Shown: positions 21,504 through 30,301 of the stretch, one piece after another
Numbering within the stretch: position 1 is the stretch's first letter
How the letters are laid out: every line of letters starts with the position of its first letter
Origin: Candidatus Hadarchaeum sp.
GTDB taxonomy: Archaea > Hadarchaeota > Hadarchaeia > Hadarchaeales > Hadarchaeaceae
DNA length: 30,301 bases
Direction of reading: 5' to 3'
NCBI RefSeq assembly: GCF_049969415.1
Contig: NZ_JBMFOX010000014.1
Location: 1-30,301 of the forward strand
Translations under genes and position numbers: made by a program
Notes under the pieces: generated by a model
What the model was told of the DNA's origin: nothing
The model's database searches: none
Seen by the model: only the letters and a program-made list of their open reading frames with translations

Positions 21504-21914
21504 CTACTCACCCATCGCGAAGACCACCATTCTCCGGTTGCGGGGCCCGTCCGCCTCGATCAGGAGAAAGTTCTGCCAGGTCCCTCTCACCAGCCTGCCG
21601 TCGATGATGGGTAAGACTAGAGGGGAACTGAAGAGGGCCGACTTGAGGTGGGCGTGGGCGTTGTCGTCAATCCTGTCGTGCTGGTAGTTTCCCTGTTGGG
21701 GCACCAGGCCATCCAGCTTGTTGAGCAGATCCTGTTTCAGCCCGCCTTCATCCTCGTTGAGGACCAAGGTCGCGGTCGCGTGGGGCAGCAGCACCAGGAG
21801 CAGCCCGTTTCTGATTCCAGACTCCCGGACGGCCGCGAGCACCTTGTCGGTAACATCGACCACTTCGCAATGTTTTCGCGTGGAAACGTTGAATTCCCTG
21901 GACCAAGTTTTCAT
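21504..21914 (-). CDS. yjbQ: YjbQ/UPF0047 family protein
   Basis: DVTD.V, HATA.L.LNE, Y.HD..DDNAHAHLKSAL, GTWQ....E.DGPR. Confidence 0.92.
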   Translation of the reverse strand: MKTWSREFNVSTRKHCEVVDVTDKVLAAVRESGIRNGLLLVLLPHATATLVLNEDEGGLKQDLLNKLDGLVPQQGNYQHDRIDDNAHAHLKSALFSSPLVLPIIDGRLVRGTWQNFLLIEADGPRNRRMVVFAMGE

Positions 21915-21981: not shown

Positions 21982-22917
21982 ATGAGGGTGCTGGTCACAG
22001 GGGGGGCGGGGTTCATCGGCTCCCATCTGGTCGACGCCCTGCTGGCCCGGGGCCACTCGGTCACGGTGCTGGACAACTTCTCCACCGGCTCGGAGGGAAA
22101 CATCGCCCATCACCTAGGTAACCGAGATTTCCGGCTGGTCCGGGGGGACGTCAGGGACCCGGCGGCGGTCAGGCGGGCGCTGGAGGGGGCCGAGGCCGTG
22201 GTACACTTGGCGGCCTTGATCAGCGTGCCGCTCTCAGTCAGGGATCCGGAGCTGACCAGCGAGGTGAACCTGGGGGGGACGCTCAACCTGCTCAGGGCCA
22301 GCCTCGAGGCCGGGGTCAACCGTTTTATCTTTGCCTCCTCCTGCGCCGTCTACGGGGAGGCGAAGCAGCTGCCGATAAAGGAGGAGACGCCACCGGAGCC
22401 GCTGTCGCCCTACGCCCGCTCCAAGCTCGAGGCGGAGAGGGCCTGCCGCGCCCTCTTCGAGGCCAACGCCTTCCCCGCGGTTTCACTCCGTTACTTCAAC
22501 GTCTACGGGCCCAGGCAGTCGGGGGGCGAGTATGCCGGGGTGATGCTGAGGTTCATCGAGCGCCTGCGGCAGAACCAGCCGCCGGTCATCTACGGCGACG
22601 GGGAGCAGACCCGCGACTTCATCTACGTGACCGACGTGGTGACGGCCACGCTGCTGGCACTGAAGTCCGGGGTCGAGGGTGAGGTGATCAACGTGGGTAC
22701 GATGAGGCGGACAAGCATCAACGAGCTCTGCGGGATCTTCCTCAAGCTCTCCGGGAAGACCAAGTTGAGGCCGGTATATGAGGCCGCCCGTCCCGGCGAC
22801 ATCAGGCACAGCCAGGCGGATATCTCCAAGGCGCGGGAGCGGCTCGGCTTCAGGCCAAAGGTGTCGCTGGAGAGCGGCGTCAAGATGCTGTTGCGGAGCC
22901 AGGGGGTCGGCAGGTGA
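21982..22917 (+). CDS. NAD-dependent nucleotide-sugar epimerase/dehydratase (GalE-like extended SDR)
   Basis: VTGGAGFIGSH, HLAA, ASSCAVYG, YARSK (YxxxK), RYFNVYGP, GDGEQTRDF. Start is ATG 21982. Confidence 0.93.
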   Translation: MRVLVTGGAGFIGSHLVDALLARGHSVTVLDNFSTGSEGNIAHHLGNRDFRLVRGDVRDPAAVRRALEGAEAVVHLAALISVPLSVRDPELTSEVNLGGTLNLLRASLEAGVNRFIFASSCAVYGEAKQLPIKEETPPEPLSPYARSKLEAERACRALFEANAFPAVSLRYFNVYGPRQSGGEYAGVMLRFIERLRQNQPPVIYGDGEQTRDFIYVTDVVTATLLALKSGVEGEVINVGTMRRTSINELCGIFLKLSGKTKLRPVYEAARPGDIRHSQADISKARERLGFRPKVSLESGVKMLLRSQGVGR

Positions 22918-22961
22918 AGGTCTGGATTATGACGCTAATGCGGGCCGAGGCGAGTGCCGTC
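22914..22961 (+). pseudogene. Decayed duplicate of the GT2 5' end (MKVWIMTLMRAEASAV)
   Basis: 31/47 nt identical to 24403-24449, first 13 nt exact; GTG overlaps the galE stop. Confidence 0.7.
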
Positions 22962-23076
22962 ATTTGGGCAACAGTCTGCACTGGGAGGGCGGGGGAGCGC
23001 CTTTTAAATACCTGTAATGGAGAAAATTAGTACACTATAGTAAACTATTTAAATGAAAATTGATACAGTAAAGTGT

Positions 23077-24405
23077 ATGATTAATGAGAATCTTCTGGGG
23101 ATAATGGAAGACTGGAACCTCTGGGCGAGGGATCAAAACACTGGGATTATGAGGGACGATTATCTCTCAAAGATGAGTTCCCTTTGGAATGCCCTTGGCA
23201 CCTGCACGGCCGTGGTTGGTGTGAGGAGGGCGGGGAAGACCTTCATCAGCAAGCAGTTCCTGAAGAAACTGATCGGGGAGGGGTGGCGAAGGGAGCAGAC
23301 CCTTTACGTTAACTTCGAGGATCCGGTGTTGAGGCCCATGCTCTCCGTGGGGCTTCTCCAGGACATCTACGAAACTTACAGGCACTTCCTGAACCAGACC
23401 GAGACGGCCGTGATAATCCTCGATGAGGTTCAGAATGTTCAGGGCTGGGAAAGCTGGGTCAGGTCGATGCTCGACAAGCAGGAGAAAGTGCGAATGATCA
23501 TAACCGGTTCCTCGTCCCAACTCCTCAGGGGGGAGCTTGCGAGCGCGCTGACAGGGAGGATCCTGACGCTGGAGGTCTTCCCCTTGGATTTCGGAGAGTT
23601 CCTGCGGTTCAAGGGTTTTGAAGGTGACCCACTTTTCAGGCGGAGAGAGGTCCTGAGCCTCCTCCGCGAGTATCTAGAATTTGGCGGATTCCCTCAGGCA
23701 GTCCTTGCTGAGGACAGGGATGTGAAGAGGGCGGTCCTGAAGGAGCTGTTTGAGGGCATCCTCACCCGGGACGTGGCCGAGAGGCACGGAGTGAGAGAAG
23801 TGGGCGACTTGAAGAGGCTAGCGGTTCTAACGGTTGGGAACTTTTCCTCCTACATCAGCGTCAAGAGGCTTTTGCATCTCTTCACCTCCATCACTAGGCG
23901 AAAGGTGTCTCCCTCGACCATCAACCAGTTTCTCAACCATTTCCGGGAGGCGTTCCTCTGCTTCTATGTGCCGATCTTCAGCTACAAGGTAAAGGATCAG
24001 CTCCTGTATCCGCGAAAGGTCTATCCGGTTGATGTGGGGTTGGTGAACGCGGTGGTTCCAAGGCCATTGGAGAACCTCGGCGGATTGGCGGAAAATGTGG
24101 TTGCGATTTCCCTGTTGAAAAAGTTCGGGGAGGAAAGTATCTTCTATTGGAAGGACAGGATAAGTGAGGTCGACTTTGTGGTGAAGGAGGGGATGCGGGT
24201 GAGGCAGCTCATCCAGGTGTGCTGGGACCCGACCGACGAGGAGACGAAGAAGCGGGAGGTCAAGGGGCTCCTGAGGGCGATGGAGGAGTTCCGGCTGAGG
24301 GAGGGGCTGGTGCTGACCGAGTACTTTGAAGAGGGGGAAGAGGTGGAGGGAAAGAGGATAATTTACAGGCCGCTATGGAAGTGGCTGCTGGAGGTGGGAT
24401 CATGA
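23077..24405 (+). CDS. AAA_14 ATPase with C-terminal DUF4143 (PD-(D/E)XK-like) domain
   Basis: GVRRAGKT, YVNFED, LDEVQ, TGSS, GGFP, KVYPVDVG, ENVV, EVDFV, LIQV. ATG 23077 is about 23 nt after TTTAAAT (probably leaderless); 23053 is an alternative start. Confidence 0.9.
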   Translation: MINENLLGIMEDWNLWARDQNTGIMRDDYLSKMSSLWNALGTCTAVVGVRRAGKTFISKQFLKKLIGEGWRREQTLYVNFEDPVLRPMLSVGLLQDIYETYRHFLNQTETAVIILDEVQNVQGWESWVRSMLDKQEKVRMIITGSSSQLLRGELASALTGRILTLEVFPLDFGEFLRFKGFEGDPLFRRREVLSLLREYLEFGGFPQAVLAEDRDVKRAVLKELFEGILTRDVAERHGVREVGDLKRLAVLTVGNFSSYISVKRLLHLFTSITRRKVSPSTINQFLNHFREAFLCFYVPIFSYKVKDQLLYPRKVYPVDVGLVNAVVPRPLENLGGLAENVVAISLLKKFGEESIFYWKDRISEVDFVVKEGMRVRQLIQVCWDPTDEETKKREVKGLLRAMEEFRLREGLVLTEYFEEGEEVEGKRIIYRPLWKWLLEVGS

Positions 24406-25061
24406 AGGTCTGGATCGTGATGCCGGCGCGGGATGAAGAATTCGCCATCGGTGGGGTGATCGACGGCCTGCAACGGGAGGGCTGGCGCGATATCATCGTG
24501 GTGGACGACGGGTCGAGGGATCGAACGGCGGAGATCGCCCGGGCGAAGGGCGCCGTGGTCGTCAGCCACCAGCGGAACCTCGGGCTGGGGGCGGCCCTGC
24601 GCACCGGCCTGGAGGAGGCCCGGAGGCGCGGGGCGGACTGCGCGGTGACCTTCGATGCCGACGGCCAGCACGACCCACGGGAGGTGAGGAAGCTGGTTGA
24701 GGCGATCGACGGGGCGGACCTCGTTATCGGGTCGAGACGATCCGTGAACATCCCGCTGAACAAGCGCTTCGGCAACTTCATGCTCAACCTGATCACGAGG
24801 CTGATGGGGGGACCGCTGCTGGACTCACAGTCGGGGCTGAGGGCCTTCAGCCGCCGGGCGCTGGAGGCCATCAGGATCCGGAGCGATCGCTATGAGGTCT
24901 CATCGGAGATCGTCATCAATGCCCGGCGCTTGGGGCTCAGGATCAGGGAGGTGCCGGTGAGCTGCTACTTCACCGACTACTCCAAGGCCCGGGGGACGAC
25001 GATCGCCAGTGGCCTGCGGATCTTTTTCCGACTGGTCAGGCTTCGGCTGCTCTACGGCTGA
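24402..25061 (+). CDS. Glycosyltransferase family 2 (dolichol-phosphate glycosyltransferase-like)
   Basis: VVDDGS.D.T, N.GLGAAL, DADGQHDP, VIGSR, DSQSGLRAF; ATGA overlap with the ATPase stop. Confidence 0.92.
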   Translation: MKVWIVMPARDEEFAIGGVIDGLQREGWRDIIVVDDGSRDRTAEIARAKGAVVVSHQRNLGLGAALRTGLEEARRRGADCAVTFDADGQHDPREVRKLVEAIDGADLVIGSRRSVNIPLNKRFGNFMLNLITRLMGGPLLDSQSGLRAFSRRALEAIRIRSDRYEVSSEIVINARRLGLRIREVPVSCYFTDYSKARGTTIASGLRIFFRLVRLRLLYG

Positions 25062-29595: not shown

Positions 29596-29716
29596 GCGAT
29601 GGAGGAGTTCCAGCTGAGGGAGGAGCTGGTGCTGACCGAGGATTTCGAGGGGGGAAGAGGTGGAGGGAAAGAGGATAGTTTTCCGACCGCTCTGGAGGTG
29701 GCTGCTCGGGGGATGA
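29596..29716 (+). pseudogene. Frameshifted 3' remnant of an AAA-DUF4143 gene (direct repeat of 24277-24389)
   Basis: Near-identical DNA (gcgatggaggagttcc..gctgagggagg.gctggtgctgaccgag...ggaagaggtggagggaaagaggata) with a 2-nt deletion near a G-run at about 29650; ends RPLWRWLLGG*. Confidence 0.88.
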
Positions 29717-29720
29717 GCTG

Positions 29721-29835
29721 GTGAGGATACTTTACATCACGGAAATTTATCCGGATTCAAAGCGCGGCTTGGGCGTCTGGGGGGAGGTGAGCGGTAATTC
29801 TACGAGATCTCTGCGGGGTGGCCAGATTTGCGCAC
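29721..29835 (+). pseudogene. N-terminal relic of a GT4-family glycosyltransferase
   Basis: MRILYITEIYPDSKRGLGVW, then with one G restored in the G-run GGGER*FYEIS, matching the GT4 'MRIL....YP....GG.ER..YE' pattern; contains a frameshift and a TAA. Confidence 0.65.
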
Positions 29836-29893
29836 ATGTGAACCAAATATCTAAATTTTCGAACCACATATGAATTATCATGATTTCCAGATA

Positions 29894-29951
29894 GTTTCCT
29901 TGAGGAAACAATATTTATAAGCAATCGTTTCCTAAAAGTAACAATAGGAAA
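29894..29951 (+). promoter_or_regulatory. Promoter with two palindromic operators
   Basis: GTTTCCT-TG-AGGAAAC (29894-29909), TTTATAA (29914-29920), TTTCCTA-N10-TAGGAAA (29928-29951). Confidence 0.65.
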
Positions 29952-29952
29952 A

Positions 29953-30301
29953 ATGCGAAGAGAGGATTTTAAAGCCGTTTTGGTGTGGTGGAAAAGGCTC
30001 AAGCTTCCAGAGATGGTCAGCCGGGAGCTTACCCTTCCTGCGTCCCCGGCCCAAGTAATCTCCGTCGTGGGTGTGAGGAGGTGCGGGAAGACTTACCTGC
30101 TCCTCAACACGATGAAGCAGTTGCTGGAGGAGCTGGGGAAGGATAACATCATCTACGTAAATTTCGAGCACGAGAGGCTGAGGAACCTGGAAGCAGGCGA
30201 CCTGGGAGAACTCCTCGTGGCTCATAGGGAGATCTTCGAGCCGGATGAGACGAAGCCGGTCTACATGTTTCTGGACGAGATCCAGAACGTCAGGGACTGG
30301 G
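29953..30301 (+). CDS. Second AAA_14(-DUF4143) ATPase, 5' part (runs off the window; not in the ORF track)
   Basis: Manual translation MRREDFKAVLVWW...VVGVRRCGKTYLL...IIYVNFEHERL...FLDEIQNVRDW. Confidence 0.9.
   Translation, partial: MRREDFKAVLVWWKRLKLPEMVSRELTLPASPAQVISVVGVRRCGKTYLLLNTMKQLLEELGKDNIIYVNFEHERLRNLEAGDLGELLVAHREIFEPDETKPVYMFLDEIQNVRDW

Follow-up and report, generated by a model that had tools for sequence, protein, structure and literature searches.

Insertion sequences and casposons leave target duplications of a few to about 15 bp, and homing copies a gene by repair from a filled allele with no target duplication. PDC-S01, a family of ATPase genes (AAA_14 plus DUF4143; COG1373), ranks fourth by frequency among the defence candidates of prokaryotes according to passages of PMC12988326, a recent survey of immune systems in archaea and bacteria. 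It was flagged through its embedding in defence loci, is not yet validated and numbers 9,986 copies in archaea and 29,494 in bacteria. Those passages deal with abundance and with transfers between domains, and no one-gene unit, target duplication or empty site appears in them; likewise, matching titles and abstract openings describe no mobility of DUF4143, COG1373 or PDC-S01 genes, and supplements may hold context data. In this study, we analysed a 30,301-nt stretch of Candidatus Hadarchaeum sp. DNA (the window; contig C14 of an archaeal metagenome-assembled genome, or MAG, of 1.47 Mb in 138 contigs), in which a PDC-S01 ATPase gene separates galE, encoding a sugar epimerase, from a GT2 glycosyltransferase gene. 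An earlier note on this DNA, made from the sequence alone, had read the ATPase gene as an inserted cassette flanked by a duplicated GT2 start. We consider it likely that 22994-24402 is a discrete single-gene cassette inserted in galE-GT2, and that it exemplifies a family of mobile units with fixed ends.

The insertion, its empty site and the duplication of the target are established. In the window, the galE stop (TGA, 22915-22917) shares bases with a GTG at 22914, as does that of the ATPase (TGA, 24403-24405) with the start codon of GT2 (ATG, 24402); this is the common NTGA geometry that the earlier note had described for both junctions. The copies that start there, 22914-22960 and 24402-24448, are identical at 30 of 47 positions; the repeat reported earlier is therefore real, although the count had been given as 31. 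As that note also stated, the first 13 bases are shared exactly (TGAAGGTCTGGAT) and many of the mismatches are transitions (13 of 17, with four transversions). The mismatches are spread evenly over the codon positions (5/6/6), as would be expected for decay free of selection. A duplication had rightly been recognized, but its true length is about 79-84 nt and not 47 nt. Local alignment pairs 22901-22993 with 24389-24485 across one 4-nt gap, at a score of 26 against 11.6 +/- 1.9 in 1000 shuffles, and independent repeat finding detects both ends of the duplication (22913-22927/24401-24415, spacing 1488; 22971-22993/24463-24485, spacing 1492). When 679 open reading frames (ORFs) of at least 250 aa from the source genome were scored alike, two reached 26, with the ATPase in second place; the top-scoring ORF, C1:1007-2161, was considered as a further cassette and rejected as a gapped noise alignment. 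The Jukes-Cantor (JC) distance between the copies is 0.44, compared with 0.38-0.69 at fourfold sites among same-genus species, and either the insertion in the window is old or the left copy had already diverged on arrival. The left copy can be read from GTG 22914 as a 38-codon ORF ending at TAG 23028-23030, and its translation disrupts the conserved WIVMPA.NEE motif. This frame (22914-23030) begins on the galE stop in a GTGA overlap, and the decayed GT2 start may still be translated by coupling, yielding a junk peptide.

The insert between the two copies spans 1409 nt and holds, as had been claimed, only an AT-rich promoter stretch and the ATPase gene. Its base composition is foreign to the locus: GC content is 0.375-0.46 in the AT-rich stretch, 0.51-0.61 in the ATPase and ~0.55 over the whole cassette, compared with 0.63-0.745 along the flanks (~0.66 overall). 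No transposase or integrase domain was detected among 31 ORFs of the window scanned against Pfam, and a Shine-Dalgarno motif for GT2 (GGAGGTG) lies at the ATPase 3' end, 6-12 nt ahead of the GT2 ATG; both points had been made in the earlier note. From 23030 on, the left end of the insert is homologous to the region upstream of the nearest relative of the gene, a 67% identical copy in genome G029. Comparison with that copy indicates that translation of the ATPase probably starts at ATG 23077, 24-31 nt past the TATA-like box at 23046-23053, rather than at 23053 as first annotated. An origin of the last ATPase codons (EVGS) from the galE 3' end was also considered, on an 8/13 match, and rejected, as a remnant that precedes the G029 copy has this tail as well.

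The empty site was sought in 61 genomes. GT2 orthologues are present in 48 of these, the source genome included, and 29 loci other than that of the window were examined. In 17 of the 29, galE directly abuts or overlaps GT2; the remaining 12 lack galE, have other genes in between or offer too short a flank; and in none of the 29 does an ATPase lie between the two genes. Among the empty alleles are those of every same-genus genome with the locus (four: G001, G003, G006 and G007) and of 13 further relatives, and G001 and G007 show the same GTGA overlap as at 22914. The galE orthologues that adjoin GT2 in G007 and G001 are 84% identical to that of the window, and the GT2 orthologues of G007, G001 and G003 are 83-87% identical. 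Homologues of the ATPase (E<=1e-30) were found in 22 of the 61 genomes and in none of the seven same-genus genomes, and the copy in G029 belongs to another genus and a locus other than galE-GT2. Together, the empty sites in relatives and the distribution of the ATPase imply that the galE-GT2 pair is ancestral, as the earlier note had proposed, and that the ATPase was inserted on this lineage. Unrelated genes separate galE and GT2 in two other genera (L022, 2217-3459; L023, 2238-2729), where the insert is a 163/164-aa ORF on the opposite strand, joined in L022 by a membrane protein, and galE is absent beside GT2 in three loci; these intervening or missing genes indicate that this family has seen more than one remodelling of the junction. 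PheT provides a second empty site: in G026, PheT is followed by 25 nt and then by sequence that G019 carries on the far side of a 1386-nt ATPase insert. For the element at L113, genome G080 (62% complete) gave no match to the flank. For the SepRS-like case, the gene in G033 has no ATPase within 630 nt downstream, which is partial support only, as the downstream DNA differs.

The same anatomy recurs in the family. We aligned the 600 nt before each homologue to the 600 nt after it, with a strict score threshold of at least 29; 61 loci had usable flanks and 15 did not. The suggestion of the earlier note that other paralogues might carry flanking duplications is borne out at 11 of these 61 loci (z 14 to 252), all of them chromosomal or metagenomic archaeal loci from two samples, namely the phylum of the window and relatives of the unrelated archaeon G057. 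At L060 (40/44), a twelfth case, the flank is short, and the locus stands outside the strict count. In the source genome, the threshold is reached by 1 of 657 ORFs of at least 250 aa and by 1 of 536 ORFs of 90-249 aa (2/1193 overall); neither hit was accepted as a cassette, C56 being a distant 48-nt repeat and C52 a pair of paralogous signal-peptide regions. None of seven Mrr_cat loci scores 29 or more. A single distant locus from Bacilli (26% identity) has no qualifying repeat, nor has the other paralogue of the source genome with usable flanks (C110, L004). The repeats duplicate 42-320 nt of neighbouring gene ends (examples in Table 1), one intact copy of the host gene remains each time, and the inner unit measures 1.36-1.93 kb. 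The presence of the insertion and duplication signature at relatives in other archaea suggests that the family behaves like a one-gene mobile element, and on these comparisons its description as a discrete one-gene mobile unit appears well supported. At L043, which is counted among the 11, the 317-nt repeat covers an entire small gene. Because this gene is multi-copy in its genus, it may be a partner gene rather than a target duplication.

The ends of the unit can be located by comparing its copies. All-against-all blastn gave 18 pairs of elements at unrelated loci with 69-89% nucleotide identity, in which the homology forms a block of 1175-1398 nt, as a single high-scoring segment pair in 17 of the 18. 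Among the 17 pairs in which the C-terminal PLWKWLL motif could be located, the block ends -6 to +25 nt from its last codon in 14 and 37-56 nt earlier in the other three. In the two pairs inspected base by base, it starts at a palindrome around the TATA box. Of 12 cases with repeats, 6, among them the window, have the duplicated target starting -7 to +12 nt from the ATPase stop, so that the reading frame often finishes in target DNA. The C-terminal tails past WLL are of 0-22 residues and unconserved. Conservation of the PLWKWLL codons as DNA was considered and rejected, as their synonymous sites vary. Promoter palindromes around the TATA box were seen in the window and at L113, L127, L093, L115, L108 and L090/L096; they differ between lineages and are kept between close copies. 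The palindrome is likely an operator for the winged helix of the gene's own product, which would allow self-regulation.

Only AAA_14 (E 2.4e-34), DUF4143 (E 1.4e-18) and AAA_22 reach Pfam cut-offs in the ATPase, and none is a known transposase type. The protein thus shares both Pfam domains of PDC-S01, and the PADLOC profile of that family (PDLC04787) matches it at full length, over residues 25-447 (E 4.9e-109). In 54 sequences, the Walker A and B residues G56, G61, K62, D124 and E125 are invariant, as are D327, E347 and D374, with Q388 nearly so; the canonical PD-(D/E)XK lysine was not identified. DUF4143 is entered as a PD-(D/E)XK family of unassigned function in a table of PMC3424549. A search of solved structures by sequence gave no match to the ATPase. 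An AlphaFold (AF2) model built from 54 homologues (pLDDT 92.7) has its best fold matches in archaeal AAA+ ATPases (2fna, E 5.7e-10; 2qen), Orc1/Cdc6 (2qby) and the STAND NTPases NB-ARC / CED-4, at identities of just 11-16%. Named proteins among the best matches are SSO1545 / PAB2304, with ATPase_2 and DUF234 domains; Orc/Cdc6 and STAND proteins differ in having no C-terminal DUF4143 domain.

How, then, does this locus compare with described mobile elements? With tyrosine-integrase elements it shares direct repeats of tens of bases copied from the target, an intact target gene, empty sites and arrays at one site. Unlike those elements, the unit is a single gene of 1.3-1.6 kb with no tyrosine or serine recombinase in it or near it, and its targets vary by copy (GT2, PheT, the SepRS-like gene, convergent gene ends). 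Like insertion sequences and casposons, it is compact, has defined ends and is flanked by a target duplication (about 80 nt in the window), but the duplications are long and variable across the family (42-320 nt), and the cassette has no terminal inverted repeats, no transposase known to Pfam and no near-identical copies in its genome. Free-standing homing endonuclease genes resemble it as lone genes with a predicted nuclease, in or between host genes and with filled and empty alleles; unlike in homing, a target duplication is present and is the rule in the clear cases.

A mechanism can be proposed in outline. The cassette, of about 1.41 kb, pairs a TATA promoter and its likely operator with a single ORF, whose predicted product is an Orc/Cdc6-like AAA+ ATPase that also carries a winged helix and a PD-(D/E)XK domain. 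It entered the ancestral galE-GT2 operon about 80 nt inside GT2, and it is now flanked by direct repeats of the target, which span the shared TGA through GT2 codon 27. A complete GT2 would have been rebuilt by the downstream copy, with the first base of its ATG coming from the cassette, while the cassette ORF would take its stop codon from the target; the upstream copy, no longer translated as GT2, would then have decayed. In a first stage, the cassette's own predicted ATPase-nuclease may make or resolve joints at the new site. In a second, the repeats would permit excision as a circle with one target copy, and this copy could steer the circle into the corresponding conserved gene end of another genome. 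The repeat itself could stem from widely staggered cuts that are then filled in, or from a homology-guided crossover. More generally, we infer a fixed-end unit, running from the promoter palindrome to the PLWKWLL codons, that would integrate with 42-320 nt repeats of target ends in such a way that the gene it hits survives. That the unit catalyses its own integration and spreads under the guidance of homology has, in our estimate, a little less than an even chance of being right.

A wider proposal is put forward tentatively, as one joint claim. PDC-S01 genes, and probably the sister ATPase_2 genes, may be autonomous one-gene mobile elements of an undescribed kind. The ATPase/PD-(D/E)XK protein would bind its own promoter palindrome and would cut or resolve DNA at its C-terminal codons; the long, variable duplications of conserved gene ends would serve as portable attachment sites between genomes; and selfish spread would explain much of the rank that PDC-S01 has among defence candidates. 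If the gene does prove mobile, 'guilt by embedding' as an argument for defence would partly read an insertion habit, and its fixed ends, the promoter palindrome and the PLWKWLL codons with a stop borrowed from the target, offer experimental handles. On the same condition, one protein that joins an ATPase to a restriction-like nuclease would open a new route of DNA integration, in which very long target duplications spare the gene hit.

Several observations weigh against the reading of the cassette as a mobile unit of this kind. About four fifths of the testable homologue loci have no detectable repeat, so that the earlier expectation for paralogues holds only in part. Plasmid records holding homologues number 242, and none of the eight examined has a clean flanking repeat (an AT-rich gapped match at L133 was left uncounted). 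Terminal inverted repeats joining the ends of 22994-24402 were not found. Blastn of the 1.47-Mb draft assembly revealed no near-identical second copy, the unit matching itself, a 113-nt remnant (87.6%) and one sequence at 69%, with collapsed copies possible in a draft. The repeat in the window is old, as judged from its JC distance, and uneven, with 13/13 identity and then about 60%. A DUF6036 nucleotidyltransferase cassette is bracketed in G019 and G026 by copies of the same PheT 3' end. Finally, all the genomes used are draft MAGs. As for near-identical copies at another site, none was found: metagenome contigs gave five loci at 31-47% identity and genome contigs one at 26%. Two short metagenome contigs holding only the gene show no terminal overlap that would point to circularity.

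The best-surviving alternative is a passive cassette, in which the gene plays no part in its own integration and is carried by portable homology. A circle with the gene and a fragment of a conserved host gene would enter by host homologous recombination (a Campbell-type single crossover) or through a recombinase encoded elsewhere, so that the fragment common to circle and host would end up flanking the gene. The family would owe its frequent detection solely to very frequent exchange as an accessory or defence gene. This alternative seems rather doubtful to us, but it draws on much of the same evidence. The DUF6036 cassette, which is not an ATPase, has its PheT repeat in two genomes, which speaks against strict autonomy of the ATPase; because the repeat is shared, a trans-acting enzyme or host recombination could do the integration. 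In G019, the order is PheT, ATPase, repeat, nucleotidyltransferase, repeat and cas1. Other arrays have identical repeat ends: in G043:C30, ATPases A and B are very different, and the three small-gene copies around them are 96-99% identical, with homology that stops at the same base; this small gene is multi-copy in the genus. One element holds, after its stop and at a new locus, about 25 nt of its former target. Every strict repeat core is at least 42 nt long, enough for recombination, and the window repeat has its 13-nt identical core followed by a diverged arm.

The ATPase_2 family (PF01637), which had been intended as a control, adds to this picture. Repeats scoring at least 29 flank 3 of 26 ATPase_2 loci in the same genomes, and ATPase_2 genes in or beside tRNA genes, with repeats of 37-89 nt, recall classical integrating elements. 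At L140 (1071-1127 / 2680-2736) and L142 (1196-1283 / 2832-2920), the repeats resemble tRNA-gene fragments around inner units of about 1.55 kb; ARAGORN finds a tRNA-like gene at the repeat of L140 but not in L142. At L156, where the score is weaker (22), the ATPase_2 gene adjoins a tRNA-Leu gene. In addition, 3'-end remnants or tandem copies precede full ATPase copies in the window (29596-29706) and at L042, G029:C7, L115 and G057:C2. The DUF6036 cassette, the G043:C30 array, the ATPase_2 repeats, the carried target and the remnants all fit circles with one repeat copy that re-enter by homology, a process that may run beside, or instead of, a self-catalysed step. However, host recombination alone cannot carry a unit to unrelated loci with the same sharp ends, as the 18 pairs do. 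In the MAG, which is 95% complete, just one tyrosine recombinase gene exceeds the cut-off (Phage_integrase, contig C50), and none is found in the window. The enrichment in repeats falls, moreover, on two related families of predicted ATPase-nucleases, with 0/7 for Mrr_cat. Even if the cassette is passive, these loci reveal a cassette-and-repeat way of building accessory gene arrays at conserved archaeal gene ends.

Duplication-plus-insertion scars can come from template switching. A one-off accident of replication or repair, in which a foreign gene reached GT2 through template switching or break repair and about 80 nt were copied a second time, with no mobility of the family, would agree with such scars and with the old, decayed repeat of the window, but we regard it as very unlikely, as 11 of 61 loci, drawn from two or more archaeal samples at phylum level, share this anatomy and the unit ends, against 2 of 1193 controls. 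Least probable of all is that the left copy is a chance similarity or the scar of a deleted second GT2 paralogue: GT2 5' ends are conserved, and the starts of relatives score near the own copy, but no shuffle in 1000 reaches the observed score, the genome has a single GT2 of this type, which is the best of 27 GT2 genes aligned over their first 88 nt (score 24, next 22; 56/84 identity to 24402-24489 with one 4-nt indel), and the empty-site genomes have nothing between galE and GT2. The cassette reading given in the earlier note is therefore supported; the three outcomes that it had named as contrary (no empty site, no duplications at paralogues, a better match to another GT2) were each looked for, and none occurred.

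Table 1. Features of the window at and beyond the insertion, and examples of repeats flanking ATPase homologues at other loci
Feature	Position or locus	Strand	Evidence or match
galE-type NAD-dependent sugar epimerase, upstream member of the ancestral galE-GT2 pair	21982..22917	+	Pfam Epimerase E 2.2e-73
Left copy of duplicated target, decayed GT2 codons 1-27	22915..22993	+	alignment, repeat finding
AT-rich left end of insert	22994..23052	+	GC 0.375-0.46; TATA-like boxes 23002-23009, 23046-23053; palindrome 23025-23050
AAA_14 ATPase + winged helix + DUF4143 (predicted PD-(D/E)XK), family PDC-S01	23053..24405	+	Pfam, PADLOC, AF2 model
Right copy of duplicated target, working GT2 5' end	24403..24485	+	first three bases are the ATPase stop codon
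GT2 glycosyltransferase, polyprenyl-phosphate / AglJ-like	24402..25061	+	Pfam Glycos_transf_2 4.7e-22
ATPase 3'-end remnant, frameshifted, 111 nt	29596..29706	+	87.6% identical to 24277-24389; compared with L096, L098
Second AAA_14 paralogue, 5' part, cut by contig end	29953..30301	+	Pfam AAA_14 1.9e-17; palindrome/TATA promoter ahead
Repeat of SepRS-like gene 3' end	L065		100/104
Repeat of PheT 3' end	L055		46/54
Repeat of another GT2 5' end	L102		210/270
Repeat of GT4-like start	L093		74/89
Repeat of 3' end of convergent gene	L113		65/69
Repeat of 3' end of convergent gene	L047		74/82

The genes near the insertion are, in order, a UPF0047 gene (21504-21914, minus strand), galE, the AAA_14/DUF4143 ATPase, GT2, a NeuB-like gene and a cytidylyltransferase gene. 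The galE product matches NCBIfam galE (E 5.5e-64) under the curated cut-off, and the GT2 matches to NCBIfam PpgS/AglJ are likewise under the cut-off.

Some observations concern the related cassettes. In the G019 array (L089, G019:C24, 14130-16640), the three PheT 3'-end copies lie in the gene, after the ATPase and after the DUF6036 cassette, and L179 (G026:C17) has the nucleotidyltransferase cassette and the repeat with no ATPase. Locus L084 (G043:C30, 1-3530) consists of a small membrane-protein gene, ATPase A (351 aa), a small gene, ATPase B (440 aa) and a small gene; its right small-gene copy has an 84-nt internal tandem expansion, and the first 30 nt of the repeat are found on five other contigs of that genome as well. 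At the ATPase_2 loci L151 and L159, it is the 5' end of a cas4-like gene that is repeated.

Further traces of the family are present in the source genome. In the window, the ATPase remnant is followed by ~13+ codons of a decayed glycosyltransferase-like start (RILYITEIYPD...), and 29596-29860 lies directly upstream of the promoter of the second AAA_14 paralogue. The layout of this segment resembles the left repeat of another, older insertion into a site where an ATPase was already present. Metagenome locus L096 (2686-3286) is 92.9% identical over 29701-30301 and shows the rest of the second paralogue; there, the ATPase is followed by ~13 codons of a GT4-like start and not by the whole gene. 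Additional broken ATPase copies lie at G000:C7:30255-31359 and G000:C5:36061-36465 in the source genome. One of the broken copies contains an in-frame TGA and a TAG; its DNA matches the G009 copy L093, a neighbour of GT2 in its own genome, at 78% identity over 1109 nt.

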